From Candidatus Latescibacterota bacterium (lineage in GTDB: Bacteria > Latescibacterota > UBA2968): DNA of 64,000 nucleotides. Under the pieces are notes generated by a model. It searched no databases, had not been told where the DNA came from, and saw only the letters and a program-made list of their open reading frames with translations. This document shows positions 12,728-56,988 of this stretch, piece by piece. Numbering within the stretch: position 1 is the stretch's first letter; every line of letters starts with the position of its first letter. Made by a program: the position numbers and the translations under genes. The stretch is taken from positions 4,732,686-4,796,685 of the forward strand of contig OZ241986.1 in assembly GCA_965204375.1 (NCBI GenBank). Direction: 5' to 3'.

Positions 12728-12773
12728 CTCTATCTCCTTATTAGCTATCAGCGGTTAGCTGTTAGTCCCAGCC

Positions 12774-12819
12774 CTTCACACTTCACACTTCACACTTCAC
12801 ACTTCACACTTCACACTTC
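12774..12819. repeat. tandem heptamer repeat (CTTCACA x6 plus a partial copy; GAAGTGT on the minus strand)
   Basis: Read directly: cttcaca repeated six times immediately after the stop codon of ORF 12820-13077. Confidence 0.9.
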
Positions 12820-13077
12820 CTATGCGCGTCGTTCGAAAAGGATGGATACCTCGTGTTCAGATGGCTCGCCAATTTCTACGAGCGACCAGTCTGCGTCGTA
12901 GTTTTCCACGATCCGCTTCAAACACATGACTCTCTGTTCGTGGGGTTCGGCGTGTTCCTCCCAGGCGAATAGTTCCATGCGGTAATCGTATTTTCTGCTT
13001 TTGCCGTTTACCACCACGGTTACTTCCACGGTGTCTTCGGCGTCTAAAGGCGGCAATTTGATTGAGATTTTGGGCAT
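12820..13077 (-). CDS. small hypothetical protein (85 aa) inside the ABC operon
   Basis: ORF with GGAGAA 6 nt upstream of the ATG. It lies between two ABC ATPase genes on the same strand. No motif recognised. Confidence 0.45.
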   Translation of the reverse strand: MPKISIKLPPLDAEDTVEVTVVVNGKSRKYDYRMELFAWEEHAEPHEQRVMCLKRIVENYDADWSLVEIGEPSEHEVSILFERRA

Positions 13078-13104
13078 GGTGATTCTCCGAAGTCGTGATC
13101 AACG

Positions 13105-13203
13105 CTACTCATACCGCAGGGCGTCAACGGGATTGGATCGCGCAGCGCGAATGGCCTGGAGGCTTACGGTACACAGGGCGATTTTGAGATAGTTTTTGAG
13201 CAT
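13105..13203 (-). pseudogene. collapsed permease relic: 32-codon in-frame fusion of a permease N-terminus and C-terminus
   Basis: It translates to MLKNYLKIAL-CTVSLQAIRAARSNPVDALRYE*. The first 10 residues match the N-terminus of 8996-11395 (MLQNYLKIAL). The last 21 match the paralog C-termini (TVSMQAIRAARSNPIDALRYE). Confidence 0.7.
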
Positions 13204-13215
13204 GCGGTTTTTCCG

Positions 13216-16451: not shown

Positions 16452-17810
16452 TTACTGCTTTAAAACCAACTTGTCGATTTCTTCGTAATTGTCATAGGAC
16501 GATGTGACCACGCGCTCGCCGGGAGAGAGGCCAGCGAGGACTTCGAAGTATTCGGGGCTTTGGCGGCCTATGCGTACGTCGCGGCGTATGGCTTCGTCGC
16601 CTTCGACGACAAATACCCAGTTGCCGCCTGTTGTTTGATAAAATCCGCCGCGGGGGAGCAAGAGGGCTTCTTCGGGTGCGTCGAGTTCCAGACGTATCTG
16701 TTCTGTTTGACCGCGCCGGATGCTTTGAGGTGTCGCATCGACAAAATCCATATCGACTTCAAATTGTCCTTCTACGACTTCGGGAAAGACCCGACGGATT
16801 GTGAGGTCATACGTTTCATCGCCGATTTCAATGGTGCCTTTGAGTCCCTTTGTGATTCGCGTGATGTAAAATTCATCGATGCCCACCCGCATCTTGTAGG
16901 CGTCGAGTACATCGACCTGACCAATGCGCCTTCCCCTGTTCATCAACTGACCGATTTCTGCATTTAATTGGGATAATTGTCCAGCAATGGGGGCGCGCAC
17001 GGTCAGGTTTTCCAATGGACGGCGCACATGTTCCAATTGTCGTTGCAAGCTTCTGGCGCTCGTGTCCAGTGCAGCGAGTTGGTTGATGCGATACAGCGAG
17101 TCCTGGCGTACTGTTTCCAATGCAAATGACCTGCGTTTCTGATCGTTTTGATATCGATCTCGCGCACCTTCAAACAGGTCTTGGGAAGTCAGTCCGCGTT
17201 CATATAAAACTTTCTGCTTTTCGTGTTGGCGTTCTGTCTCCCGCAAGTTCAATTCAACGCGCATCAGTTCCTGGCGGTTGCGAATGGCCCGATTTTCCAG
17301 ATTCAACCGCGTGTTTTCCATGTTGTTGATTTGTTCGAACAAGCGGGCTTCTTGGGTTAAAATATTTTGTTCCAGGGTGGGATTCGACAATTTCAAAATG
17401 GGCATGCCTTTTTCGACCATGGTCCCTTCTTCCAGGAAGATTTCCTCTATTTGTCCGCCTTCGAGTGCGTCGATATAATAGGTTTGTATCGGCAATACGG
17501 TGCCGCGCTGGACGGTAAATTCCTGAAAGGGACCGCGCGTGACTTCTGAGATGGTAATCCGATCGACCTGTACATTGAGCCGGGCGCTGTGGTCGCCAAA
17601 GATCGCCATGTAGATTACGGCACACACAAATATGGCGATTCCGCTTATGGTCGCAATGCGCTTTGGTGTCCATACTTTCTTTTCGACCCTGCGGTCCATG
17701 CCGTCTTGACCCGTGGCTTCTGTTGCCGGTTGGGACGATGAAGAACCGCTGCCGACAAAACTGGGTACGGCTTTCTTACTCGGTGCATCATCTCGTTCGG
17801 GTGTTGACAT
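16452..17810 (-). CDS. HlyD/MacA-type periplasmic adaptor (membrane fusion protein)
   Basis: N-terminal TM anchor, a long coiled-coil-like segment (LEQNILTQEARLFEQINNMENTRLNLENRAIRNRQEL...), then beta-barrel-like C-terminal domains. Start set at MSTPERDD (ATG 17810) with GAGGA upstream. Confidence 0.75.
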   Translation of the reverse strand: MSTPERDDAPSKKAVPSFVGSGSSSSQPATEATGQDGMDRRVEKKVWTPKRIATISGIAIFVCAVIYMAIFGDHSARLNVQVDRITISEVTRGPFQEFTVQRGTVLPIQTYYIDALEGGQIEEIFLEEGTMVEKGMPILKLSNPTLEQNILTQEARLFEQINNMENTRLNLENRAIRNRQELMRVELNLRETERQHEKQKVLYERGLTSQDLFEGARDRYQNDQKRRSFALETVRQDSLYRINQLAALDTSARSLQRQLEHVRRPLENLTVRAPIAGQLSQLNAEIGQLMNRGRRIGQVDVLDAYKMRVGIDEFYITRITKGLKGTIEIGDETYDLTIRRVFPEVVEGQFEVDMDFVDATPQSIRRGQTEQIRLELDAPEEALLLPRGGFYQTTGGNWVFVVEGDEAIRRDVRIGRQSPEYFEVLAGLSPGERVVTSSYDNYEEIDKLVLKQ

Positions 17811-42192: not shown

Positions 42193-44529
42193 TCACTCAT
42201 CTCTCAACGCATCCGCCGGGTTTGCGCGTGCGGCTTTGAAGGCTTGGGTGGTGACGGTTGTGAGTACGACGAGGAACATCGCTACGCTGCCGAGTAAGAA
42301 TGCGTCCACTCCCAATTCAGTGCGGTAGGCGAATATTTGCAACCATTGATTGGTCGCGTAATAGGCGATGGGGAATGCGATGAGGCTTGATAGGGCGATG
42401 TAGAGGACAAATTCTCGTGAGAGCAGAGATAGGATTTGCGCCTGGGATGCGCCTAAGACTTTGCGAATGCCGATTTCTTTGGTGCGTCGTGCGACAGCTA
42501 ATGCCGCCAGTCCGAATGCGCCGAGTGCGGCGATGAAGATGGCGAATCCCGTGGCGTATTGGATCATCTGGTTCCAGCGTTCTTCTTTTTTGTATTGTTT
42601 GTCTAAGTGTTCATCGATGAATGAGAAGTTGAATGTCTGGTTGGGGGCGACTTCTGCCCATTTTTCTTTTATAAATGCGATGGTGCCCGGCACGTTTTCG
42701 GGGTGAATGCGAACCAACAAGCGTCCAGTGTATATACCGAGTGGCAGGACAGCGGGTGCAATTTTGTGATGCAGGGAGTTAAAATGGAAATCGCGGACAA
42801 CACCGATGATGGTTTTGTCTCGTCCATGTTTGATTGTTTTGCCAACGGGATCTTCTATGCTGAATTTTTGGACGAGTGCCTCGTTGACAAGGATTGATTC
42901 TTTGGCATCTGTTGGAAATTCTCTGTCGTATTCTCGACCTGCAACCAACTTTATGCCGAGTGTTTTGAATAGGTCGTAATCAATGCGGATGTTCTCAACG
43001 TATTGCTTTGGACTTCCTTCATAAGTTACATCAGCCCGGGAACTCATGGTGCTGCTTAGATAATGATTGAGCCAGGTCGTGCTGATCACTGAGGGATGTG
43101 ACAGCAGTTCATCCCGAAAAACGTTTGGCAGGGTTTTGTTTTCTCTTTGCAATGCACGGGTCTGAATAGCGACGACGTGTTCGGTTTGATACCCCAGGGG
43201 TTTGGTTCGCAAAAAGGTGAGTTGTTGGGCCATCATCAGGGTGGTGATGATGAAGAATATGGATAGGGCAAACTGAAAAATGACCAGTATTTTGCCAAAA
43301 CGATTGCCCGTTTTAATTTGCAATCTGCTCGCGATGATTTGGGTTGGCTGTAGGCGGGATAGGATAAAGGCGGGATACCCCCCTGCTGTGATGCCCACGA
43401 TGGTGACGAGAAGAATGAGAAAGGCGAGTGTTGTAAGATTGAGGCCGTCGCTCAGGGATAGGGATTTTCCGGCCAGATTGTTGAATGTTGGCAATGTGAG
43501 TTCTGCTATGGCAATGCCAACGATGAGCGCGATGAGGATGAGTAAGAGCGATTCGCCGATAAATTGGTTTGCGATCTGCATGCGCCCTGCGCCGACGACT
43601 TTTCGCAAGCCGACTTCTCGCGCCCGCGTTGCCTGTCGTCCGAGGGTTAAGGTGATGAAGTTGACACAGGCGATAAATAGCACGAGGATAGCAATGCCCG
43701 ATAGAATGTATGAATAAACTGGATTACTGCTATTACGCACCCCCATATTTTGAGCAAAATGCATTTGGGTGATGGGTAGAAGTTTGAGTTGGTTTTCGCT
43801 CTTTTCACCCCACCAGATTTTGGTCAATCTGGGAAATTGCTGTTCGACACTATTTGGAGATACATTTTGGGGGAGCATCATATACGTAGCCAGATAGTAT
43901 ATATTCCATTGGTTTTTGACTTGGACCCAGGAGGCCCGTTCAAATGGCAGTAGTGCGTCAAATTGAATTGTGGAATTTTTGGGTACGTTTTTTACAATGC
44001 CCGTGATGGTGTAGTTTTGAATTTCCTCTCCGCGCTGAATTGGAAGCACTTCTCCAACCGGGTTGGCGTTGTTGAAATACTTCTGCGCGGTTTTTTCTGT
44101 TATGATTACAGAATACTTGTCCTGGAGTGCTTGAGTGAAATCGCCGTGAATGACTGAGAAAGAAAAAATGTCGAGGAAGTTGGAATCGACAAACCCCAAA
44201 TTCGCTTGAAAAGCGCGATCTTGTGTACCAATTTTACCCCCGCTACCTCTGAAACGAACCGTCTGCATTGCGGGGAATGCTTCTGTTAATGCGGGTCCGA
44301 GGGGATCTGGTGTTATACCAGAAACCCGATAGATGCGGTCGGCGTTTTTGTGAAAGGTGTCGTAGGTCCATTCGTTGTAGGTAAAGAGGTAGGTGAGGAT
44401 GCAGAAGGCGAGGCCAATGGCAATGCCGATGATGTTAATGGCAGAGTAGATGCGGTGTCTGGCGAGGTTGCGGATCGCTGTTTTCAGGTAGCTACTGAAT
44501 AAAGATATTTTAGCACCTGCTTTGAACAT
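42193..44529 (-). CDS. MacB/FtsX-type ABC transporter permease, internally duplicated (subfamily B)
   Basis: Start at MFKAGAKISLFSSYLKTAIRNLARHR (ATG 44529, GGAGG upstream). Both FtsX modules are present. C-terminus NPADALRDE. Confidence 0.85.
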   Translation of the reverse strand: MFKAGAKISLFSSYLKTAIRNLARHRIYSAINIIGIAIGLAFCILTYLFTYNEWTYDTFHKNADRIYRVSGITPDPLGPALTEAFPAMQTVRFRGSGGKIGTQDRAFQANLGFVDSNFLDIFSFSVIHGDFTQALQDKYSVIITEKTAQKYFNNANPVGEVLPIQRGEEIQNYTITGIVKNVPKNSTIQFDALLPFERASWVQVKNQWNIYYLATYMMLPQNVSPNSVEQQFPRLTKIWWGEKSENQLKLLPITQMHFAQNMGVRNSSNPVYSYILSGIAILVLFIACVNFITLTLGRQATRAREVGLRKVVGAGRMQIANQFIGESLLLILIALIVGIAIAELTLPTFNNLAGKSLSLSDGLNLTTLAFLILLVTIVGITAGGYPAFILSRLQPTQIIASRLQIKTGNRFGKILVIFQFALSIFFIITTLMMAQQLTFLRTKPLGYQTEHVVAIQTRALQRENKTLPNVFRDELLSHPSVISTTWLNHYLSSTMSSRADVTYEGSPKQYVENIRIDYDLFKTLGIKLVAGREYDREFPTDAKESILVNEALVQKFSIEDPVGKTIKHGRDKTIIGVVRDFHFNSLHHKIAPAVLPLGIYTGRLLVRIHPENVPGTIAFIKEKWAEVAPNQTFNFSFIDEHLDKQYKKEERWNQMIQYATGFAIFIAALGAFGLAALAVARRTKEIGIRKVLGASQAQILSLLSREFVLYIALSSLIAFPIAYYATNQWLQIFAYRTELGVDAFLLGSVAMFLVVLTTVTTQAFKAARANPADALRDE

Positions 44530-44612
44530 TTTACACCTCCTATAAATACAGAATTGCAAAACCACTGGAAATTCACGATATTTAAAATTATATCGTCTTC
44601 TAAACTCCAACT

Positions 44613-45250: not shown

Positions 45251-47665
45251 TCACTCATCTCGCAACGCATCCACGGGATTGCGGCGCGCGGCTTTCAGTG
45301 TTTGAAAATTCACTGTCAACAACGCGACTAACAGGGTCAGTATCCCGGCGAGGCCAAAAACGCCTATGCTCAGTTCAATGCGATATGCGAAGTTGGTCAA
45401 CCATTGATTCATCATCCAGTAGGCAACAGGATAGGCGATGATGTTGGCGACCAGTAGTAACTTGATAAAATCTCTGGAAAACAACCACATCACATGATGG
45501 ACAGAAGCCCCCAGCACTTTCCGAATCCCAATCTCCTTTGTCCGCCGCGCAACCGCCAGCGACGCCAGTCCGAATAATCCCAAACACGAAAGCAGGACAG
45601 CCACGAGAGCCGAATGGCTCAATACGCGAAACCAATAGACCTCATTGGCATACTGTTGATTCAGGTTTTCATCCAGAAACGAGAGTTCAAAAGGCATATT
45701 GGGTGCAACTTTTTCCCAGGTGTTTTTGAGCATCCCAATCGTTTCAAAAATTTGGTCTGAGCGCAGGCGAACCAGCAAAGATGGATAAGTTCTGTATTTT
45801 TCCATCACCAATGCCACCGGCTCAATTGGTCGATGCAAAGATTCTATGTGAAAATCGCGCACCACACCAATAATAATGGGGTCTTCAACGCCTTCCCGGC
45901 TATAGCCTGCATTCCAACCAAAACCCGTCAGCGTTTCTCCTACCGGATTTTCAAAGAATTGCTTTGCCAGCGTTTCGTTGATCAAGATTGCTTTAGTCAT
46001 ATCTGACGGATGATCTTTTGAAAAATCTCGGCCCTCGACCAGTGAAATTTCTAACGTGGATAGATAATCGACATCTACGCCAATCACCCTGAAGGTAATC
46101 TTTCTGCCATCAGGCAATTTATAAGGGTACGTGGAATAACCCATTACTGAGGGTGGACGATCCGTAATTGTAACACCCGCAATGCGTGAGTCGTTTACAA
46201 TGGCTTCCTTATAGGGTTTTGCCAACTGTCGACGACCTGTCTGAATAACAACGACCTGCTCTTTGTTAAAGCCCAGGTTTTTGTTACGCACATAATCCTG
46301 CTGTTGAATCATCACACCTGTGCCAATGATGAGGGCTATGGATGTCGCATATTGCAGAATGATTAACGTGCGCGTCAAAAAGTTGCGCCCACCAAGGCGC
46401 GCTTCGCCTTTTATGGCTAAAACAGGTTGAAACCGCGATAAGACCAGAGCGGGATAACTGCCAGCGATTAGTCCGACAATGCCGAGCAGGAGCAGCAATA
46501 CCCACCAATCGCCAAAATAAGCGAGGGTCAATTTTTGATGTACAAATCCGTTGAATACGGGCAAAAGGATTTCGGCAAGTGCAGTGCCCACGAGTAAGCC
46601 CAAAAAGCACAACACCAGTGCTTCGCTCCAGAACTGCTGAATAATCTGACCTCGCTTGGCGCCTACCACTTTGCGCAATCCCACTTCTTTTGCCCGCCCG
46701 GAAGATTCTGCGACCGATAGGGTAATAAAGTTGCTGCACGCAATGAGCAAGACCAGCCATGCAAGCCCCCACAAGATATAAACCCCTGTTGGATTGCCCT
46801 GCGGTCCATAGCGATTGGGAATGTCTGTATTCCAGTACACATCCGTCAGGGGTTGAAGAATAAAGTTAAATGGTTCGCTTTTGGATCTATCTTCCCGCAA
46901 CTTTTCTTTTTTTGACCAATGGTTGAGATCGTCAATTACGCGAGAAGCATTTGTTTCATCTATTTGCACAAAAATCCATGCACAGGCACCACGGCTTCTT
47001 GCAAGAGGGAAACCTTTTTCAGCTTTTGTCGAAACCAACACATCGAATTGAAGACTCGATGTTGTAGGCACATCTGCCATAACACCTGTCACGACAAATT
47101 GCTTATTGTTTGCGGTCAGTGCTTGCCCTATTAGCGCGTTGTAATCCTGTACATCTCCAAAAAATTTGTGTGCAATGGTTTCAGTAATCACCATGCCATC
47201 TGGTCGGGTAAGTACAGTCTCTGGATTCCCGACCAGCAGTGGAAACGTGAACATTTGAAAGAAATTTGTGCTCACAATCCCAATGTCCTGTGGGAATGTC
47301 TTTTCATCCCTTGTGATTTTCGCCCACCTACTCTCCCATCCACTACTGCGAATCCGCATAAATGCACAGGCTTGTTCAACACCAGGCATTTCATCTTTTA
47401 ACGCATCGACAACCCAAAGCAGATGCACAGTATCCCAGAGATTAAATGGAATCGCCTTCCCGTCCGGTTGAAGTCTTTGCGCTACCAACCGAAACATCTG
47501 ATCGTGGTTCTCGTGAAACTGATCGCGTGACCATTCGTGTTTGACAAACAGAGCCATCAAGATACAGCAGGCAAGTCCCAGCCCGAGGCCGAACACATTG
47601 ATGAATGTGTAGAGCTTCTTTCGCATTAAATTGCGAATCGCAACGGTTAGATAATTTTTGATCAT
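45251..47665 (-). CDS. MacB/FtsX-type ABC transporter permease, internally duplicated
   Basis: Start at MIKNYLTVAIRNLMRKKLY (ATG 47665). CSNFITLSVAESSGRAKEVGLRKVVGA and CLGLFGLASLAVARRTKEIGIRKVLGAS. C-terminus NPVDALRDE. Confidence 0.85.
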   Translation of the reverse strand: MIKNYLTVAIRNLMRKKLYTFINVFGLGLGLACCILMALFVKHEWSRDQFHENHDQMFRLVAQRLQPDGKAIPFNLWDTVHLLWVVDALKDEMPGVEQACAFMRIRSSGWESRWAKITRDEKTFPQDIGIVSTNFFQMFTFPLLVGNPETVLTRPDGMVITETIAHKFFGDVQDYNALIGQALTANNKQFVVTGVMADVPTTSSLQFDVLVSTKAEKGFPLARSRGACAWIFVQIDETNASRVIDDLNHWSKKEKLREDRSKSEPFNFILQPLTDVYWNTDIPNRYGPQGNPTGVYILWGLAWLVLLIACSNFITLSVAESSGRAKEVGLRKVVGAKRGQIIQQFWSEALVLCFLGLLVGTALAEILLPVFNGFVHQKLTLAYFGDWWVLLLLLGIVGLIAGSYPALVLSRFQPVLAIKGEARLGGRNFLTRTLIILQYATSIALIIGTGVMIQQQDYVRNKNLGFNKEQVVVIQTGRRQLAKPYKEAIVNDSRIAGVTITDRPPSVMGYSTYPYKLPDGRKITFRVIGVDVDYLSTLEISLVEGRDFSKDHPSDMTKAILINETLAKQFFENPVGETLTGFGWNAGYSREGVEDPIIIGVVRDFHIESLHRPIEPVALVMEKYRTYPSLLVRLRSDQIFETIGMLKNTWEKVAPNMPFELSFLDENLNQQYANEVYWFRVLSHSALVAVLLSCLGLFGLASLAVARRTKEIGIRKVLGASVHHVMWLFSRDFIKLLLVANIIAYPVAYWMMNQWLTNFAYRIELSIGVFGLAGILTLLVALLTVNFQTLKAARRNPVDALRDE

Positions 47666-49360
47666 GAGAATTTCCTCCCATTGTTCACTATTCATCTCTC
47701 AGGGAATCCGCCGGATTTGCGCGTGCGGCTTTGAGGGTTTGGGCGGTGACCGTTGTGAGCACGACGAGGAACATGGCGACGCTGCCGAGTAAGAAGGCAC
47801 CAATACCCAATTCAGTGCGGTAGGCGAATATTTGCAACCATTGATTGGTCGCGTAATAGGCGATTGGGAATGCGATGAGGCTTGATAGGGCAATGTAGAG
47901 GACAAATTCTCGTGAGAGCAGGGACAAGATTTGCGTTTGTGATGCGCCCAATACTTTGCGAATGCCAATTTCTTTGGTGCGTCGCGCAGCGGCCAGTGCT
48001 GCGAGTCCGAATGCGCCGAGTGCGGCGATGAAGATGGCGAATCCCGTGGCGTATTGGATCATCTGGTTCCAGTATTCTTCCCTTTGGTATTGGTTGTTTA
48101 CGCCTTCATTGAGAAATGAGAAGTCGAATGTCTGGTTGGGTGCGACCTTTTCCCACTGTTTTTTGATAAATGCGATGGTGCCCGACACATTTTCGGGTTG
48201 AATGCGAACCAGCAGGCGATTATGCATTGGAAAGATGTACAGAATAGCGGGCACAATTTTGTGATGCAGGGAGCGAAAATGGAAATCCCGGACAACGCCG
48301 ATGATGGTCCTGTCTCGTCCAGCGTTGATTGTTTTGCCAATGGGATCTTCTATGCCGAGTGTTTTGACCAGTGACTCGTTGACAATGACCGCTTCTTCTT
48401 TATCGGTTGGAAATTCTTTAGAAAATGCGCGACCTGTGACGAGTTTGATGTCGAGTGTTTTGAACAGATCGTAATCTATCTGAATATTTTCAACGCGTTG
48501 CTTTGGGCTTCCTTCATAGGTTACACTGGCTCCATACTGTCCTCTGTTGTTTAATGGGTGACTGAGCCAGGTTGTGCTGATCACTGAGGGATGCGACAGC
48601 AGCAAATCCCGAAAAACATTTGGTAGGGTTTCGTTTTCTTCTTCGAGGTCATAGGTCGAGATGGCGACAACGTGTTCGGTTTGATATCCCAGGGGTTGGG
48701 TTCGCAAGTATGTGAGCTGGTTGCTCATCATCAGGGTGGTGATGAGCAAAAATATGGATAAGGCGAACTGAAAAACGATCAGTGCTTTGCCAAAGCGATT
48801 GCCCGTTTTGATTGTAAATCGGTTTGTTATGATTTGGGTTGGCTGGAATCGGGACAGGATAAAGGCGGGGTACCCTCCTGCTATGATGCCTACGAGGCTG
48901 ACAAGCAGAATGAGAAAGGCGAGTGTTGTGAAATTCATACCGTCGCCCATGGACAGGGATTTTCCAATTAAGTTGTTGAATGTTGGCAGGGCGAGTTCTG
49001 ATAGGGCGATGCCAACGATGAGTGCGATGAAGATGAGCAAGAGCGATTCGCCGATAAATTGATTTGCGATCTGTATGCGTTTTGCGCCGACGACTTTTCG
49101 CAAGCCGACTTCTCGCGCCCGCGTTGCCTGTCGTCCGAGGGTCAGGGTGATGAAGTTGACACAGGCGATAAATAGCACCAGCATTGTGATGCCAGATAAA
49201 ATGTATGAATAGACTTTTTGAACAAAGGGCCTTTGGGTAAAGGGCTGAAGTTTGAGTTGTTTTTTACTTTTTTCTCCCCACCAGAGTTTGACATATTTGG
49301 GAAATTGTTGTTCGATGCTCTTTGGGGATACATTCGGGGGGAGCATCATATACGTCGTCA

Positions 49361-50289
49361 GAAGCTGTTTTAAAATTATGGAGAAATAAAAAAAAGAGTT
49401 GAAAAAGCGTATTCATCAGTCCAAATTTAGGGTATCCAAAAACCTTAAAAAGAAAGGACATGCGATGAATACGCCAAGACAATATCCGACAAATGTCACC
49501 CAAGCGCAATGGCAACTGCTGATCCCCTTGTTGCCCAAACGCAAATGGCAAAAAGGAGGTCCCGGACGTCCACCTGCCAATTTGCGACGCGTGTTTGATG
49601 GCATCCTGTATCTGACGAAGACGGGCTGCCAATGGCGCATGCTGCCTCATACCTTTGGCTGTTGGCAAACCGTGTATGGCTATTTCAACAAATGGCGCGA
49701 GCAAGACATCTTTCAGCAGGTGCAACAAGCACTCTCACGTAGGGAGCGCAAACGGCAAGGGCGCAAGCCTGACGCATCAGCAGGCTGTATTGACAGCCAA
49801 AGTGTTAAGACAGCAACACAAGCAGACTCAAAGGGTTACGATGCGGGAAAGAAGATCAATGGACGAAAACGCCATCTGCTTGTCGATACCCTCGGACTGG
49901 TCATCAGCACCTATGTCTCACCGGCTAATCTCCAAGATCGTGATGGCCTCAAAAAGGTGCTCAATCAGTATTTTGAAACAGGCGTGACACGCTTACGCAA
50001 GCTGTGGGTTGATGGCGGATATCGCGGCGAAGACCTCAAGGAATGGGTCGCTGATAGAAAACAAACACATAAGATTGATCTTGAGGTCGTTACCCCAAAA
50101 GGGGAAGGCTTTCAAATAGTCAAACGCCGTTGGGTCATTGAACGCACCTTTGCTTGGTTATTCAATTTCCGCCGACTGTCAAAGGATTATGAACGCTTAA
50201 CGGACAACAGTGAAGCCTTTATTCACATCGGTATGATTTATCTCTTAATTAACAGACTTGCTTAAACGCCAGGGTTTTAAAACAGCTTC
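49361..50289 (+). mobile_element. IS5-family insertion sequence (IS1031-like group), 929 bp, 3-bp TCA target duplication
   Basis: Terminal inverted repeats GAAGCTGTTTTAAAA (49361-49375) and the reverse complement of 50275-50289. Flanking direct repeat TCA at 49358-49360 and 50290-50292. A single transposase ORF. Confidence 0.85.
49465..50265 (+). CDS. IS5-family DDE transposase
   Basis: N-terminal TQAQWQLLIPLLP...GRPPANLRRVFDGILYLTKTGCQWRMLP, the DUF4096-type HTH of IS5-family transposases. DDE region ...IDSQSVK...GKKINGRKRHLLVDTLGL...WVDGGY...VIERTFAWL. Start set at MNTPRQ (49465). Confidence 0.85.
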   Translation: MNTPRQYPTNVTQAQWQLLIPLLPKRKWQKGGPGRPPANLRRVFDGILYLTKTGCQWRMLPHTFGCWQTVYGYFNKWREQDIFQQVQQALSRRERKRQGRKPDASAGCIDSQSVKTATQADSKGYDAGKKINGRKRHLLVDTLGLVISTYVSPANLQDRDGLKKVLNQYFETGVTRLRKLWVDGGYRGEDLKEWVADRKQTHKIDLEVVTPKGEGFQIVKRRWVIERTFAWLFNFRRLSKDYERLTDNSEAFIHIGMIYLLINRLA

Positions 50290-51001
50290 TCAGGTAATAT
50301 ACATTCCATCGGTTAGGGGCGCGCATCCCGGGGTGAGGTTCAAATGGCAGTAGTATGTCAAATTGAAGTGTGGAGTTTTTGGGCACGTTTTTCACGATGC
50401 CCGTGATGGTGTAGTTTTGAATTTCTTGATCGAAGTACTGAATTGGAAGCACTTCTCCAACCGGGTTGGCGTTGTTGAAATACTTCTGAGCGGTTTTTTC
50501 TGTTATGAGTGCTGAATACTTGTCTTGAAGGGCCTGGGCAGGATCGCCATGAAGGATTGGAAAAGAGAAAATATCGAAGAAGTTGGGATCGGCAAATCCC
50601 ACATGTGCTTCAAAAATGCGATCTTCTGTACCAATTTTTCCCGTTAGGTACGGAGAATGATAGACACGAACTGTCTGCATTGCGGGGAATGCTTCTGCTA
50701 TTGCGGGTCCGAGGGGGTCTGGCGATACACCAGAAGCGCCGGGAGAAACCAGATAGATATTGTCGGCGTTTTCGTGAAAGGTGTCATAGGTCCATTCGTT
50801 TTGGACAAAGAGGTAGGTGAGGATGCAGAAGGCGAGGCCGATGGCAATGCCGATGATGTTAATAGCAGAGTAGATGCGGTGTCTGGCGAGGTTGCGGATC
50901 GCCGTTTTCAGATAGCTACTGAATAAAGATATTTCAGTGAACATTGGTCTCTCCTGTGTATGGTGTGGCGTAAACTCTATATTTTATTTTATCAGGTGCG
51001 A

Positions 51002-51580
51002 TCAGCCCGCCCAGCCTCCCAGTTGTTTTTCCAATGCGCGTTTTAGCTGATGGCGTCCGCGGTGGAGCCAGATTTTCACAGAGCCGAGGGGTGCTTGCAT
51101 TTCCCATACGATTTCGCGGTAGGACAGTTCTTTTATGTAGCGAAGCCACATTGCGCGTTGTTGTGTCTGGGGCAATGTGCGCAGGCCCTGTGCTATGAGT
51201 TGATGGCGTTCTTTTTTTATGATGCTATCTTCTGGTGTTGTCAGAGTAATTGGTTCGGGCATTTGTCGCGCTGCTGTTTCCATACCATCTTTTCGGGACA
51301 GCCGGGACCGGAGGTGTGACCGCCCGACGTTGATGGCAATGCGCGTTAGCCATGTTGTGAATGCCGATTTGCCGCGAAACTGGCGCAGGCTCTGAAAGAC
51401 TTTCATGAATACCACCTGCATCAGGTCTTCGGTTTCCTCGCGGTCCTGCACATATCGCCCGACAATGGCGCGTACGCGGCTCTGGTGCAAATAGTAGAGT
51501 TTGCCAAACGCGCTTTTGTCGCCGGCTTTTATCATGTGGACCAATTGCACATCGTTTTCTATGTCTGATTGTTTATTCAT
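51002..51580 (-). CDS. ECF-type sigma-70 family RNA polymerase sigma factor
   Basis: 192 aa. Region 2 (EDLMQVVFMKVFQSLRQFRGKSAFTTWLTRIAINV) and region 4 (LPQTQQRAMWLRYIKELSYREIVWEMQAPLGSVKIWLHRGRHQLK). Its start overlaps the upstream permease stop by 8 nt (ATGAATAA). Confidence 0.85.
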   Translation of the reverse strand: MNKQSDIENDVQLVHMIKAGDKSAFGKLYYLHQSRVRAIVGRYVQDREETEDLMQVVFMKVFQSLRQFRGKSAFTTWLTRIAINVGRSHLRSRLSRKDGMETAARQMPEPITLTTPEDSIIKKERHQLIAQGLRTLPQTQQRAMWLRYIKELSYREIVWEMQAPLGSVKIWLHRGRHQLKRALEKQLGGWAG

Positions 51581-53936
51581 ATCGCAATGCCTCCACGGGG
51601 TTCATTTTTGCAGCTTTTATGGCTTGCAGGCTTACTGTTCCGATTACGACCAATAGGGTCAATACACCGCCCAGCGCGAATGCTCCGATGCCCAGTTCAA
51701 TTCGATACGCGAAGTCCGATAGCCATTTGCTCATTGCCCAATAGGCGACGGGCCAGGCGAGTACGTTTGCAATGCCGACCAGCAGAACGAATTCGCGCGA
51801 TAGCAAACGCACGACGTTTGTGACGCTGGCGCCCAATATTTTGCGAATGCCAATTTCTTTGGTGCGCCGGGTCACGGCGAGTGCTGTCAATCCAAATGCG
51901 CCCAGACACGCGATAAAAATGGCAAATAGGGTTCCGTATCCGATCATGCGATGCCAGCGCTCTTCGGTTCGGTATTGGCGATCTATGCCTTCGTCGAGAA
52001 ATGAATATCGGAAGCCAGGGGATTGTGTTACGGCTTCCCATTGCGCTTCCATAAATGTTAGTGTGCCGGGGATATCGTCGGCACGCACCCGAACCAGCAA
52101 TCGGCTAAATTGATGTTCTGGATCGCATTTCAGGAGTGCGGGGCCAATTTTGTGGTGGAGAGAGCGAAAATGAAAATCGTTTACCACGCCGATTACTGTC
52201 ATATCATCAAAAAATTTCAGTGTTTTTCCGAGGGGTGGTCCCGGTCCCAGTTGTTTGGCCAGGGTTTGGTTGATGATTACAGATGCGGTGGGGTCTGTCA
52301 CAAGGTCCCGTGAATAATTTCGTCCTTCGATCAATTTGATGTCGAGCGTTGGCACAAAGTCGTAATCGACAAAGAAGACCTCCACGCCTGTTAAGGTTGT
52401 TCCTTCATGTACCACAACCCCGCGCGACTGGTATCCATTCCGCATCATGTGATATATTGGGGTCACGCCGAGAATTGCGTGATGGGATAAGAGGGCGTCT
52501 CGATAGGTTTCAATGCCTTTTGGTCCCAGGCCTCGCAGCTTGCTGAGGCGACTGACGACAATCAAATGTTCGCTGTCAAATCCCAGGGGTTTGGTCCGCA
52601 AATAGTCGAGTTGAGAGGTCATGATGAGGGCGCTGATGACGAGGACCGCAGACAGCGCGATCTGGAAGACCACGAGAAACTGGCTGAATAATCCCGCACT
52701 GACAATTTTCAATCTGCCTTTGAGTACGTGGATTGGCATAAATCCGGATAGGACAAAGGCCGGATAGGTACCTGCGAGCAGGCCGACAATTAGAGCCAGA
52801 CCTATGAGCGAGGCAAATGCCAGACCATCCAGATGTGCAACTATGGATAGTTTTTGCGCCATGAGGTTGTTGAACAATGGCATTAAAAGTTCTGATAGTG
52901 CGAGTCCGATTACAAATGCTATGAGGCTCAAGAGCACGGATTCTGTGAGGAATTGCACGATGACCTGGGGTTTGTGTGCGCCAACGACTTTGCGGATGCC
53001 GATTTCCCGCGCCCGAGAAGCCGACCGTCCCAGGGCGAGGGTCATAAAGTTCACGCATGCGACAAAGAGTACCAGGGCTGTAATGCACAACAGGATGTAG
53101 CTGTATGCCGGGTCAGTGGCGGGTTCGGGTGCGCGGATATTTGGACTGAAATGCACATCGGTAAGGGGTTGCAATTTCATCTCCTGCTTTTCTCCCATGA
53201 TGGGCCAGGACCAGTTTAGAAAACGCGGAAATAATTTTTCTATGTCTTCGGGGCGGACCTGATTGTGGAGTAAGACGTAAATGCTGGTGTCTGTTGTGTA
53301 ATTCCACGAGTTGAGCGCGTCTTCGACATTCTCATAGGACTGGATGCAGCCGAATTGAATGCTGGATGTTTCGGGGGTATCTTTCACGATGCCCGTAATT
53401 AGAACCTGATGGATTTTTGAGTTTCTTGTGAAAGAGATCGTTTTCCCCATTGGGTCGGTGTTGCCGAAGATTTTTTGCGCGGCTGTTTCTGATATGACAA
53501 TGGCGTCTTTGTGGTCCAGTGCTGTTGCGGGGTCGCCTTTTATCAGGGGAAATGTGAAGATATCCCAGAAACCCGGATCGACATAAATAACGCGCTCTTG
53601 AAATGAATGGTCGCCATATTGGAATGTGCGAGAAGTGGTATTGATTCTCACGACCTGCTGCATTTGTGTGGGGAATGCTTCTGCCAATACAGGACCAAGA
53701 GGACCCGGCATATAAGCCGAGGCATCACTGCCTTCTCCCACTTCTCCTTTATTGTAAACGCGATAAATCCGATCTGCTTTTTCGTGGAATGCGTCGAAGG
53801 ACCATTCGTGTCGTACGTACAGGAAGGTCAAGATGCAAAACGCGATCCCGATTGCCAGGCCGGTGATGTTGATCGCTGAATACACTTTGTAGCGGACGAG
53901 GTTGCGGTACGCCACGGTCAGGTAATTGCGGAACAT
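51573..53936 (-). CDS. MacB/FtsX-type ABC transporter permease, internally duplicated
   Basis: 787 aa. MFRNYLTVAYRNLVRYK. CVNFMTLALGRSASRAREIGIRKVVGA and CLGAFGLTALAVTRRTKEIGIRKILGAS. C-terminus NPVEALRYE. Confidence 0.85.
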   Translation of the reverse strand: MFRNYLTVAYRNLVRYKVYSAINITGLAIGIAFCILTFLYVRHEWSFDAFHEKADRIYRVYNKGEVGEGSDASAYMPGPLGPVLAEAFPTQMQQVVRINTTSRTFQYGDHSFQERVIYVDPGFWDIFTFPLIKGDPATALDHKDAIVISETAAQKIFGNTDPMGKTISFTRNSKIHQVLITGIVKDTPETSSIQFGCIQSYENVEDALNSWNYTTDTSIYVLLHNQVRPEDIEKLFPRFLNWSWPIMGEKQEMKLQPLTDVHFSPNIRAPEPATDPAYSYILLCITALVLFVACVNFMTLALGRSASRAREIGIRKVVGAHKPQVIVQFLTESVLLSLIAFVIGLALSELLMPLFNNLMAQKLSIVAHLDGLAFASLIGLALIVGLLAGTYPAFVLSGFMPIHVLKGRLKIVSAGLFSQFLVVFQIALSAVLVISALIMTSQLDYLRTKPLGFDSEHLIVVSRLSKLRGLGPKGIETYRDALLSHHAILGVTPIYHMMRNGYQSRGVVVHEGTTLTGVEVFFVDYDFVPTLDIKLIEGRNYSRDLVTDPTASVIINQTLAKQLGPGPPLGKTLKFFDDMTVIGVVNDFHFRSLHHKIGPALLKCDPEHQFSRLLVRVRADDIPGTLTFMEAQWEAVTQSPGFRYSFLDEGIDRQYRTEERWHRMIGYGTLFAIFIACLGAFGLTALAVTRRTKEIGIRKILGASVTNVVRLLSREFVLLVGIANVLAWPVAYWAMSKWLSDFAYRIELGIGAFALGGVLTLLVVIGTVSLQAIKAAKMNPVEALRYE

Positions 53937-53980
53937 TTTATTCTCCTTGGCTGTCCCAGGCGGTCAGGACGAAGCCTGTT

Positions 53981-55420
53981 TTAAAGGAGCGGGGAGATTA
54001 TCGTGAGCATGACTCGAACAGAACGATTTGTCATCATAACCTTTCCTTGCCGATCGATCAGGACATAGTGCGGAAAGCCTCCAATGTTATACATCTTTGA
54101 CACTTTGTTATTGTTGTCCATAGCGTCCAGGATCTGGGGCCATTCAATGTGAGACTTCTCTACATAATTTTTAACTTTGTCTCTTCTGATATCGGTACTG
54201 ACGCCGATAATCTCGAAATTATCGCGGTCGAATTTTTCAGATAGTGCTTTCAATCTGGGGGTATCTTTGATACAAGGCCCGCACGAGGTGTGCCAGAAGT
54301 CCAACAAAACGTATTTGCCCCGGAAATTTGAAAGCTGAAGATTCTTTCCGTCTATATCCCTAACTACAAAATCCGGTGCCGCAGAGCCTCGCTTGATCTC
54401 AATCTTTGTCGGGACGAAGACATCTGACTTCTTGAGGATAATTTCATCACCAGAGGCGGAGATGCTTTTAATTTTAAATGTGGTACCACCGATATTAAAG
54501 GGTTTGTCCGCGTCGTAATATTCCGCTGATTCGCGCTCACTCCCGAATATGCCATCGTGATCGAGATCCCATAGTATTCTGTTAAAAATTTTGGTAGAGT
54601 AGGTCGCGAAGCGTCCTTTGTTGTAGATCGCCAGATCGTATAATTGACCATCTATTTTCACTTGTCCTTTTCTATATTCAGTTACGCTTCCCCTGAATTT
54701 TGGGAAGGTTGGATCTTTCCGCTTTTTCACATATTGCGTATATCTATGAACCTCCACGCCCACCCTTTGGGTTTTGGCGATTCTACCATCGTTGTATTCA
54801 AATTCAACGGTGGCATTTGCCTTCTGCCCATAGGGGAGTCTCCACGGTAGAATGTAGCTCAGCAGACGAAATACCGTACCGAAGTTCTCTGGATATATCG
54901 CATGTTCATCGGAGAAGTCTTCATTGTTGTTGGTATCAAAAATGAAAACAGCATTTCCATTCTGGTCCTGCCCATTCACAAAGGATACTTTGCTATCTAC
55001 AGGTACACCCAAGCTATATAGTTCCCAGAGTTCTCGTTTCGTCTCTTCTGGGCGACTATCGTCCAACAAAAACTGTAGCGCACTCAATTCGAATATCCCA
55101 TAGAATTCGATGGTCATTCCCGGTGGAAATCCTCTTAAACCTTTCTCAAGCGGTTTTCGACTTATCTGATCGTGATCATGAAAGTCAATCGATGATGACC
55201 TGAATCTCGATAATGCTTGTGAGCTTAAAGGTACACGCTCCAGGGGGATCACAACTTCATCCATATTAGCTGAGTTAAATCGCGCAACGGATGGGTCATC
55301 TGAGGAATCCTGGGTATTCTTGGAAAGGCCGAAGAGAGTGGAATGAACAGAGAGTGAGAAGAGTATAAGCAGACCAGCAATAATGCTGTTCTTTCTGAAA
55401 GTCGGGTTAATGGAGATCAT
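53981..55420 (-). CDS. membrane-anchored or exported protein with a C-terminal TlpA/ResA-like thioredoxin domain
   Basis: Start at MISINPTFRKNSIIAGLLILFSLSV (AGGAGG upstream). About 330 aa that I cannot assign, then FRGKYVLLDFWHTSCGPCIKDTPRLKAL (CxxC redox motif) and GFPHYVLIDRQGKV. Confidence 0.7.
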   Translation of the reverse strand: MISINPTFRKNSIIAGLLILFSLSVHSTLFGLSKNTQDSSDDPSVARFNSANMDEVVIPLERVPLSSQALSRFRSSSIDFHDHDQISRKPLEKGLRGFPPGMTIEFYGIFELSALQFLLDDSRPEETKRELWELYSLGVPVDSKVSFVNGQDQNGNAVFIFDTNNNEDFSDEHAIYPENFGTVFRLLSYILPWRLPYGQKANATVEFEYNDGRIAKTQRVGVEVHRYTQYVKKRKDPTFPKFRGSVTEYRKGQVKIDGQLYDLAIYNKGRFATYSTKIFNRILWDLDHDGIFGSERESAEYYDADKPFNIGGTTFKIKSISASGDEIILKKSDVFVPTKIEIKRGSAAPDFVVRDIDGKNLQLSNFRGKYVLLDFWHTSCGPCIKDTPRLKALSEKFDRDNFEIIGVSTDIRRDKVKNYVEKSHIEWPQILDAMDNNNKVSKMYNIGGFPHYVLIDRQGKVMMTNRSVRVMLTIISPLL

Positions 55421-55500
55421 GATTTCCTCCTGAAGATTTATAGGGTGGATACCTCCAACCGCACACAATTTCAGGCGACGTGTTCTTTGGTTGATTTTAT

Positions 55501-55516
55501 AGCAATAAACGTGCCA
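55501..55516 (-). promoter_or_regulatory. sigma-54 promoter (-24/-12)
   Basis: Minus strand TGGCACGTTTATTGCT, 80 nt upstream of ATG 55420. Confidence 0.8.
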
Positions 55517-55579
55517 AAAGATTCAAATGTTGAAATAACAATGAGTTATGAAAATTGCTTGAAATTGACTAATTGGAAA

Positions 55580-55618
55580 GTGTCCGATTTTGATACAGTA
55601 GTGTCCGAAAATGAACAC
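55580..55618 (-). promoter_or_regulatory. 39-bp two-site upstream activating sequence, copy 4
   Basis: Identical 39-mer, 63 nt upstream of the -24 element. Confidence 0.7.
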
Positions 55619-56034: not shown

Positions 56035-56523
56035 TCAGCCATTTTTGCGAATGCGGATGGCATCCTCTATCCACCCGGCGATTTTGCTCTTGACGTAATG
56101 GTAAGCGTCCTTGCTATCGCCATGTGGCGGATTGTACGATTTTACCACGTTTGATAATATCTGGCCGTTGATATTAATGTTATCAAAAGGATTTTTTCCT
56201 TTTGGGGATTGTTTCCCGTATTGATCCTTAAGCTTATGAACATAGATGCCAAGCAGTCCTTTGCCCTCATCCCATGATTTTTTTATTTCATAATGGATCC
56301 ATTCACTCTCAGCAGTATGACTTCCAATCAGAACGATTGTACAGGATGCTCCGGCAAGCTGACTATCTACCCATTTCTTGATTGAGGCGGTGTCGGCATA
56401 GCTTTCCCACTGGTTATCGCTGACGAGTTTATTGCCCTCGACGACACCAGCATTTCTAATTTGGGCAGCCCGCCAATTGTCGTGTGCATAGTGAAAACTA
56501 AAAAAGACCCGTCGTCCTTTCAT
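56035..56523 (-). CDS. TIR-like domain protein, ThsB-like (Thoeris-type TIR, DUF1863 family)
   Basis: RRVFFSFHYAHDNWRAAQIRN..., CTIVLIGSHTAESEWIHYEIKKSWDEGKGLLGIYVHKLKDQYGKQSPKGKNPFD closely parallels the blocks of Bacillus ThsB as I recall them (KRVFFSFHY.., CVLIGSQT..WV.YEI.KS.E.G...GI....KD.YG...KG.NPFD). The start could instead be 56571. Confidence 0.65.
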   Translation of the reverse strand: MKGRRVFFSFHYAHDNWRAAQIRNAGVVEGNKLVSDNQWESYADTASIKKWVDSQLAGASCTIVLIGSHTAESEWIHYEIKKSWDEGKGLLGIYVHKLKDQYGKQSPKGKNPFDNININGQILSNVVKSYNPPHGDSKDAYHYVKSKIAGWIEDAIRIRKNG

Positions 56524-56700
56524 TGCACTCTTTGCTCCTAAACATTGTTTCCCGAGTTGTTCACATTCCATTGTACCAGAGTACCAAAAAGTCAGGCCAG
56601 CATGTACGCAGCCTCTGCTATTGTGGCATACTTGGGAATCAAAAATCTAACATTTTTAAATAATATAGTCAATCCCATCATATCGCTACCTTGAGATGCT

Positions 56701-56988
56701 CTACAGCATGGTCTTACCCAATGAAAAGACATCGAAAACATATCCCAGGATTACGAGAGATCGCAAGTTTAGACGGTCTGACTGATGTCCGATGATGGGT
56801 TGAAATACCGAGGGGGCCTGTCTGACGACCATTAACAAGCTGGCTTCGGTTTTGGATAAGGATAGAGTTTGAATGAAAATGGGGAGTAAGGGCGGTAGGA
56901 ATCCGCTGTATGTGTCGTGTACCGCATGCCCTCCGGAGAGGGTGATTACGTCACGGGTTTGAAAACGGCTCTCACTATTTGTGGACAT
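56701..56988 (-). pseudogene. N-terminal fragment of an MFS transporter (Fsr-like)
   Basis: Only 95 codons. ITLSGGHAVHDTYSGFLPPLLPIFIQTLSLSKTEASLL...FQPIIGHQSDRL resembles the first two TM helices and loop of Fsr-type MFS proteins, which are normally about 400 aa. The frame ends just upstream of the TIR islet. Confidence 0.45.

Follow-up and report, generated by a model that had tools for sequence, protein, structure and literature searches.

Within a 64,000-nt stretch of contig OZ241986.1 from a Candidatus Latescibacterota bacterium (hereafter the window), a gene for an extracytoplasmic function (ECF) sigma factor lies between two genes for MacB-type transporter permeases, in an operon headed by a sigma-54 promoter. 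We consider it probable, at roughly 0.7, that this ECF protein is a transcriptionally controlled orphan sigma factor, wherein it forms the second tier of a two-component/sigma-54 regulon built around MacB-type (ADOP-like) tripartite pumps. A cascade from sigma-54 to the ECF sigma factor was already proposed in a first-pass annotation of this DNA, and it is supported by the finding that an enhancer and a sigma-54 promoter (P54) head the ECF-containing operon in all 28 loci of the orthologous clade. The same annotation had raised the possibility that a permease controls the sigma factor, and had listed control at transcription as the case that speaks against this idea. That case is now the simplest reading.

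A sigma-54 regulon of pump operons

The promoter of the ECF-containing operon, TGGCACGTTTATTGC (55502..55516, minus strand), is a perfect match to the consensus for the −24/−12 element. It is located 64 nt downstream of an enhancer (upstream activating sequence) whose 37-bp core, TGTTCATTTTCGGACACTACTGTATCAAAATCGGACA (55581..55617, minus strand), carries two TGT-N10/11-ACA sites and is identical at four sites in the window. Both elements are present where the first-pass annotation had placed them, and an IHF-like block (CATAAC..TTGTTA) resides between the enhancer and the −24/−12 element. The window contains four perfect TGGCAC-N5-TTGC sites, each of which is intergenic, is oriented on the gene strand, and occurs 64 to 65 nt behind the identical enhancer. 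These shared characteristics argue that the promoter is not a chance match.

Nine modules combining this enhancer with P54 are present genome-wide, and a tenth with a variant enhancer was found by promoter alignment. Every module that was checked precedes genes for a MacB-type permease or an ABC transporter ATPase. The enhancer also occurs in every one of the 21 genus genomes examined; a control search with the reversed pattern yielded 0 matches. The window promoter belongs to a sigma-54 regulon of MacB-type pump operons, in a genome that carries one copy of rpoN and about 19 enhancer-binding proteins.

To place the ECF gene in its evolutionary setting, we compared the 20-kb contexts of 28 ECF orthologues, wherein genes were labelled by homology to the window proteins and gene calls in the relatives are approximations based on open reading frames (ORFs). 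The orthologues share 86–95% or 72–74% identity with the window protein within the same genus, 51–55% in a second genus, and 42–47% in a second family (f2). The gene is present with an intact frame in 19 of 20 genus genomes, and also occurs in two families. In a maximum-likelihood tree, the orthologous ECF proteins group as a single clade (23 rows, support 88/93), nested in a Latescibacterota-specific ECF clade (97/98), along with three paralogue types from this genome at ~40% identity.

The genes that follow the promoter vary among these lineages. The 72–74% clade has the order P54-ECF-MFP-ATPase-permease-ATPase (where MFP denotes a membrane-fusion protein), with a permease gene inserted between the ECF and MFP genes in locus L056. 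The 51–55% clade has P54-ECF-MFP-(small gene)-ATPase, and the second family carries P54-TlpA-permease, then a second P54 followed by ECF-MFP-ATPase. Except in the subclade of the window, P54 is located directly ahead of the ECF gene, and on the deeper branches 43 to 97 nt separate it from the ECF start codon, apart from a single locus where the distance is 531 nt. More distant homologues from Acidobacteria (32–39% identity), some of which are encoded close to ADOP permease genes or a sigma-54-like promoter, were considered as members of the same system and set aside: they fall outside the ECF clade in the tree, and promoter matches in single sequences may be due to chance.

Gene neighborhoods in the relatives also point to a candidate activator. 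Next to the P54-ECF-MFP-ATPase operons of L081 and L083 are divergently oriented genes for a histidine kinase (HK; 73–74% identical to that of this genome) and a response regulator of the bacterial enhancer-binding protein (bEBP) class (80–81%). The same HK/bEBP pair heads the array of L013, whereas in this genome it is encoded 270 kb away from the ECF gene (C1:4510826-4513532). From adjacency in relatives alone, we infer that this pair is the activator of the enhancer/P54 modules. The HK (C1:4510826-4512166, minus strand) carries two transmembrane helices separated by a loop of ~4 residues, which is the arrangement of intramembrane-sensing kinases, and, by analogy with the dependence of BceS on BceAB, its sensing may require the pump. 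Ahead of the HK/bEBP operon in L013, L081, and L083 are a half-enhancer and a TTGGCAT-N5-GTGC element, which suggests that the activator is autoregulated in the second genus.

The pathway that we propose would begin with the intramembrane-type HK and its NtrC-family response regulator, which would engage the conserved enhancer and activate the sigma-54 promoters ahead of the pump operons and the ECF gene. In this genome, the ECF gene has no promoter copy of its own and would be read through from the upstream TlpA-permease unit. Its translation would start from a Shine-Dalgarno sequence within the 3′ end of the permease gene, where stop and start codons overlap. Once made, the ECF protein is presumed, from the absence of a partner gene, to be active without release from an anti-sigma factor, and it would steer RNA polymerase to a further set of promoters. 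The ECF protein would not be needed for expression of the pump, because the pump genes carry their own sigma-54 promoters. Given this self-promotion, and given that genome G001 has lost the ECF gene and kept a sigma-54 operon with the order P54-permease-MFP-ATPase, the sigma factor must serve an additional output.

Gene order in the window and its origin

We compared the ORFs and Pfam domains of the window with the gene list of the first-pass annotation, and the same order emerged: a TlpA-like gene, a MacB/FtsX permease gene, the ECF gene, a permease gene split by an IS5-family element, and a final permease gene, all on the minus strand. The first gene (53981..55420) encodes a TlpA/ResA-like thiol-disulfide oxidoreductase with an N-terminal membrane anchor, ~330 unassigned amino acids, and a C-terminal thioredoxin fold (Pfam AhpC-TSA/Redoxin/Thioredoxin_8 at residues 360–481 of a 495-aa ORF with a TTG start). 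Its score against the NCBIfam ResA/TlpA profiles is under the cut-off. The second gene (51573..53936) encodes a 787-aa permease of duplicated MacB/FtsX (ADOP-like) architecture, with two MacB_PCD and two FtsX domains. This protein scores 308.9 bits against the ADOP profile TIGR03434 (cut-off 622.3), and is best described as a divergent relative that shares the ADOP architecture.

The stop codon of this permease gene overlaps the start of the gene for the 192-aa ECF protein (51002..51580), which consists of Sigma70_r2 and Sigma70_r4_2 domains with no extension. Beyond it are the N-terminal part of the interrupted MacB/FtsX permease (50290..50944, ORF 50249-50944; MacB_PCD 26-202) and, after the insertion sequence (IS), the C-terminal part (47688..49360, ORF 47688-49349; two FtsX domains and MacB_PCD). 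The IS5-family element (49361..50289, plus strand; transposase 49399-50265, with DDE_Tnp_1 and DUF4096 domains) is bounded by 15-bp terminal inverted repeats, GAAGCTGTTTTAAAA, at 49361-49375 and 50275-50289, and its target duplication is TCA. The last operon gene (45251..47665, alternative start 47695) encodes another permease with duplicated MacB/FtsX domains by Pfam, and a convergent PIN toxin-antitoxin module is located beyond it.

The five genes are separated by a 44-nt gap, an 8-nt overlap, a 57-nt gap, and, depending on the start chosen for the last gene, a 22-nt gap (47665) or an 8-nt overlap (47695), and this tight packing leaves no room for a further ORF. Both the 57-nt distance from the ECF stop codon to the next permease start and the overlap at the ECF start agree with the first-pass annotation. 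The overlap, ATGAATAA, includes the ECF ATG (51580-51578) and the permease TAA (51575-51573), and is identical in 14 of 14 related genomes of the clade. A GGAGG sequence is present 9 nt upstream of the ECF start, within the 3′ end of the permease gene. Thus the overlap on which translational coupling had been proposed is conserved, and coupling of the ECF gene to the upstream permease gene is itself plausible.

The placement of the ECF gene between permeases, to which the first-pass annotation had drawn attention, is not supported as a designed feature of the operon. According to the tree, it is the derived state of one subclade. A permease gene directly ahead of the ECF gene is found solely in a terminal subclade (10 tree rows, support 97/99), and the same junction, ...GGAGGCATTGCGATATGAATAA, is present in all 14 related genomes of this subclade. 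In three of these 14 genomes the ECF gene now directly follows the promoter, yet a 32- to 80-nt remnant of the permease 3′ end is retained, indicating that the permease was deleted secondarily there. Because the second family has a TlpA-permease unit followed by P54-ECF, in the simplest history the inner promoter disappeared, two adjacent sigma-54 operons became one, and the MFP-ATPase part was relocated elsewhere in the expanding array. As reconstructed from these gene contexts, the ancestral layout is a TlpA-permease operon followed by a P54-ECF-MFP-ATPase operon. On the same basis, the conserved feature is an ECF gene that heads a sigma-54 MacAB-type operon, and its embedding between permeases is a recent by-product confined to one genus.

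The window as a whole encodes about a dozen permeases of 780–830 aa with duplicated FtsX domains, a single HlyD-type MFP (16452-17810), and two ABC ATPases, with toxin-antitoxin modules scattered among these genes. The 488-nt gap between the two ATPase genes (12728-13215, minus strand) holds a collapsed permease remnant, in which an N-terminal MLKNYLKIAL segment is fused to a C-terminal ...NPVDALRYE segment. This gap also includes an ORF of 85 aa that matches no Pfam family, and an array of seven GAAGTGT heptamers immediately ahead of the ribosome-binding site (RBS) of the ATPase gene. Tandem heptamers of the CCGTCTA/GCCGTTT type likewise occur directly upstream of the RBS of pump ATPase genes in L013, L060, L061, and L062, which represent two families, and in L012 and L050 heptamer arrays of ACTTCCT/ACTTCAC immediately precede the enhancers. 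Most relatives have an intact gene for a 387-aa major facilitator superfamily (MFS) protein immediately upstream of the enhancer; in the window (56035-56988), the MFS gene has been cut down to a 95-aa fragment beside a ThsB-like TIR gene.

The number of enhancer modules per genus genome ranges from 1–3 (G001, G011, G017, and G019, which have compact operons) to 12 (G005, G010, G015, and G006), and tracks expansion of the permease array. Elsewhere in this genome, C1:3501773-3502960 (minus strand) encodes an ECF-like protein of 395 aa that has a long C-terminal extension, divergent to another enhancer/P54 permease operon at 3503024 (plus strand).

Control and function of the ECF protein

The domain content of the protein is that of an ECF (group 4) sigma factor, with PF04542 at residues 29–93 (E 1.5e-16) and PF08281 at residues 127–178 (E 4.7e-11), and its score against TIGR02937 is 90.6 bits (cut-off 42.9). 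The nearest NCBIfam profiles are of the RpoE/SigW type, all with scores far under their cut-offs. For the RpoE-like profile TIGR02939, the score is 123.5 bits (E 1e-35) against a cut-off of 236.15, and no RseA/MucA-like gene is present in the context. Although the best PDB matches are AlgU/RpoE (AlgU 6in7, E 1.3e-29), the profile scores indicate that the protein is no member of the RpoE/AlgU or SigW families. The recognition helix of sigma4 reads K-I-W-L-H-R-G-R where the usual motif is K-S-R-L (alignment by eye), and this departure makes an unusual −35 element possible. The promoter specificity of the protein may therefore differ from that of RpoE.

We also considered whether the ECF gene could be a decaying, functionless passenger in a rapidly rearranging array, as might be suspected from its loss in G001 and from the abundance of insertion sequences, toxin-antitoxin modules, and collapsed permease remnants. 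However, the ratio of nonsynonymous to synonymous substitution rates (dN/dS) is 0.12–0.35 against the genus orthologues, which places the gene under purifying selection, and its frame is intact in nearly every genus genome (19/20) and in two families. Moreover, the acidic residues of region 2 are retained, and 44 residues are invariant across 14 homologues with identities down to 40%. A passenger gene is thus highly improbable.

If the protein were held inactive by a conventional anti-sigma factor, a gene for that partner would be expected nearby, since 114 of 157 ECF groups have a linked cognate anti-sigma gene. The first-pass annotation had noted no such gene beside the ECF gene, and this holds for all 28 loci, wherein no anti-sigma-like ORF adjoins the ECF gene and the gaps are 28 to 195 nt. 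The next gene encodes a permease (in the window and the genus) or an MFP (in the deeper clades), an arrangement that is distinct from a canonical ECF/anti-sigma module. Relatives without the insertion sequence were searched for an anti-sigma gene that might have been disrupted in the window, and again only permease or MFP genes occupy the position after the ECF gene. In Pfam searches, the permeases matched only MacB_PCD/FtsX families and the MFP only HlyD.

The three sister paralogue types likewise are without a classical anti-sigma partner. The gene for paralogue L002 is followed by NfeD-like (weak match) and flotillin-like genes, the latter name being our reading of the sequence. Downstream of the gene for paralogue L003 is a 70-aa zinc-ribbon ORF (CxxC..CxxC) with weak similarity to MqsA-N; we rejected this ORF as a zinc anti-sigma factor because it resembles the MqsA antitoxin and is absent from the window. 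At this locus (C1:2546697-2548218), a terminator-like hairpin separates the zinc-ribbon ORF from the same enhancer, here paired with a sigma-54 promoter (TGGCACGATTTTTGT); another zinc-ribbon ORF, 77% identical to the first, comes next and precedes a permease gene. A STAS protein in L013 was also dismissed as a partner-switching element, as it is lineage specific and absent from the arrays of this genome. Another ECF gene of the same Latescibacterota-specific clade, whose product is 42% identical to the window protein, is present ~300 nt past the right end of the window (C1:4796989-4797552). It is syntenic with the focal ECF gene in all genus genomes checked, with no anti-sigma gene evident.

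These findings make it unlikely that a conventional anti-sigma factor, either unlinked or too divergent to recognize, governs the ECF protein by sequestration and release while sigma-54 merely sets its level. Such an arrangement would require the partner gene to be absent from the vicinity in at least three genera and two families, and to be missing from the sister paralogues as well. In its favor, anti-sigma factors are very diverse (PMC7826278), and the ORF downstream of L005, another ECF gene of this genome, has an N terminus that by eye resembles a zf-HC2-type anti-sigma factor.

A similarly doubtful proposal is that the pump itself gates the ECF protein. This extends the BceAB-like idea of the first-pass annotation from the MacB/FtsX permease to other pump subunits, wherein a permease, an ATPase, or the 40- to 80-residue cytoplasmic N-terminal tail of the MFP would tether the ECF protein at the membrane as a non-canonical anti-sigma factor, and transport activity together with the two-component signal would decide its release. 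Genes for pump parts accompany the ECF gene at every locus, and its start overlaps the permease stop in the clade of the window. The MFP has the N-in, single-transmembrane topology of classical anti-sigma factors and is encoded directly after the ECF gene in the ancestral operon, and its unusually long tail carries a short motif (KKxVPSFVGGG / PMPGFV) that is conserved across two families.

The flanking gene, however, is not conserved: the ECF neighbour is a permease or MFP gene depending on the clade, and in this genome the MFP gene is 35 kb away. Pfam detects only HlyD, MacB_PCD, and FtsX domains in the pump proteins, the permeases are of the duplicated MacB_PCD/FtsX type rather than the BceB type, and permeases of the MacB type expose little cytoplasmic surface. 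The MFP tail has no Pfam match and is predicted to be without secondary structure (pLDDT 26–36), though the whole model is poor (mean pLDDT 53) and so constitutes weak evidence. The ECF-less G001 nevertheless retains the tail motif along with its sigma-54 pump operon. We therefore do not favor the tail as an anti-sigma domain, nor the permease as the controlling partner, in whose favor we found only that the genes are co-located. If pump gating were true, the system would be a flux-sensing ECF module.

Several observations weigh against the interpretation that the ECF protein is a transcriptionally controlled orphan with its own regulon. Motif searches of the window, the arrays, and the genome found no ECF-dependent promoter or regulon. 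Following a suggestion in the first-pass annotation that ECF-type −35/−10 elements might precede other permease genes of the window, we searched with the canonical motif GAAC-N15-18-CGT. There are four matches on the gene strand of the window, none of which is upstream of a permease gene, and the motif is absent from the intergenic regions of the arrays. An RpoE-like sequence, TGAATTT-N16-TCTGTA (44549-44574, minus strand), is located ~20 nt upstream of the RBS of a permease gene (42193-44528) that, alone among the array units of the window, has no sigma-54 promoter. When GAAYTT-N16-TCTG was evaluated as the signature of a regulon, only 2 of 22 strict genome matches were in promoter position and looser matches preceded unrelated genes, so the pattern was discarded and the match at 44549-44574 may be due to chance.

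The intergenic regions between ECF and MFP genes and between MFP and ATPase genes of relatives share no bipartite motif, only heptamer tandem repeats. Likewise, the 30-odd aligned promoter regions contain no conserved block beyond the enhancer, the IHF-like site, and the −24/−12 element, and thus give no sign of an HrpL-like autoregulatory ECF site. Furthermore, it is from gene spacing that we deduce a transcript running from the 55502 promoter through the ECF gene, and matches to promoter- and terminator-like consensus sequences inside the operon genes occur about as often as in shuffled sequence. Finally, an unlinked or unrecognizable anti-sigma factor, proteolysis, or phosphorylation may each be compatible with the sequence.

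Relation to known ECF and pump systems

The transcriptional interpretation adds a well-supported example of a two-component system acting through a sigma-54 promoter on an ECF gene, in which known wiring appears in a new lineage. Latescibacterota is a candidate phylum without a cultured member, and the host is an uncultured sponge bacterium. The ECF clade appears to be specific to this phylum on the basis of the tree. Latescibacterota is not mentioned in the main text of the 2021 paper on ECF classification, and we found no literature linking Latescibacteria, sponges, and sigma factors. The odd gene order, with a sigma factor wedged between permeases, would trace to promoter loss between two ancient neighbouring operons, and the HK, bEBP, enhancer/P54, and orphan ECF gene would together constitute a compact, portable module. 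The question of what the ECF protein transcribes is of local rather than general importance.

Precedents for control at the level of transcription include HrpL (ECF32; HrpRS and sigma-54), SigE (ECF39; CseBC), and the predicted ECF234 group (PMC7826278, PMC8999054). A close functional parallel is HrpL of Pseudomonas syringae and Erwinia, which has no anti-sigma factor, is expressed from a sigma-54 promoter through two-component-controlled enhancer-binding proteins, and occupies the second level of a regulatory cascade (PMC8999054, PMC7826278). The corresponding elements here, TGGCAC-N5-TTGC and an enhancer at the head of the ECF-containing operon, are found in all 28 loci. The two systems differ in that HrpL controls type III secretion in Proteobacteria from a separate gene, whereas the ECF gene described here is promoter-proximal or embedded in a MacB-type pump operon, and its product is nearer in sequence to the RpoE/SigW profiles than to any named equivalog.

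ECF234 of Firmicutes, which is known from prediction only, and the SigE-CseABC system of Streptomyces (ECF39) also are without an anti-sigma factor and have a neighbouring two-component system that is thought to control ECF transcription; ECF234 additionally has an ABC transporter in its context. These groups occur in other phyla, and their response regulators are not sigma-54 activators; we liken them to the present system in regulatory logic. RpoE/AlgU (ECF02) and SigW (ECF30) provide the best profile and structure matches and share the two-domain architecture, but their RseA/MucA and RsiW partners have no counterpart here, and the sigma4 helix of RpoE reads R-S-R-I-F-R-A-R by eye, distinct from that of the window protein.

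With BceAB-BceS, the present system shares an ABC pump regulon and an intramembrane-type HK. That analogy fits the unlinked HK rather than the sigma factor, and the permeases here are duplicated MacB/ADOP proteins and not BceB. The arrays themselves resemble ADOP/MacAB tripartite efflux systems, with which they share duplicated FtsX permeases, large paralogous arrays, few ATPases, and one MFP. The ADOP arrays of Acidobacteria are described with PadR regulators, whereas the arrays examined here make up a sigma-54 regulon that contains an ECF sigma factor.

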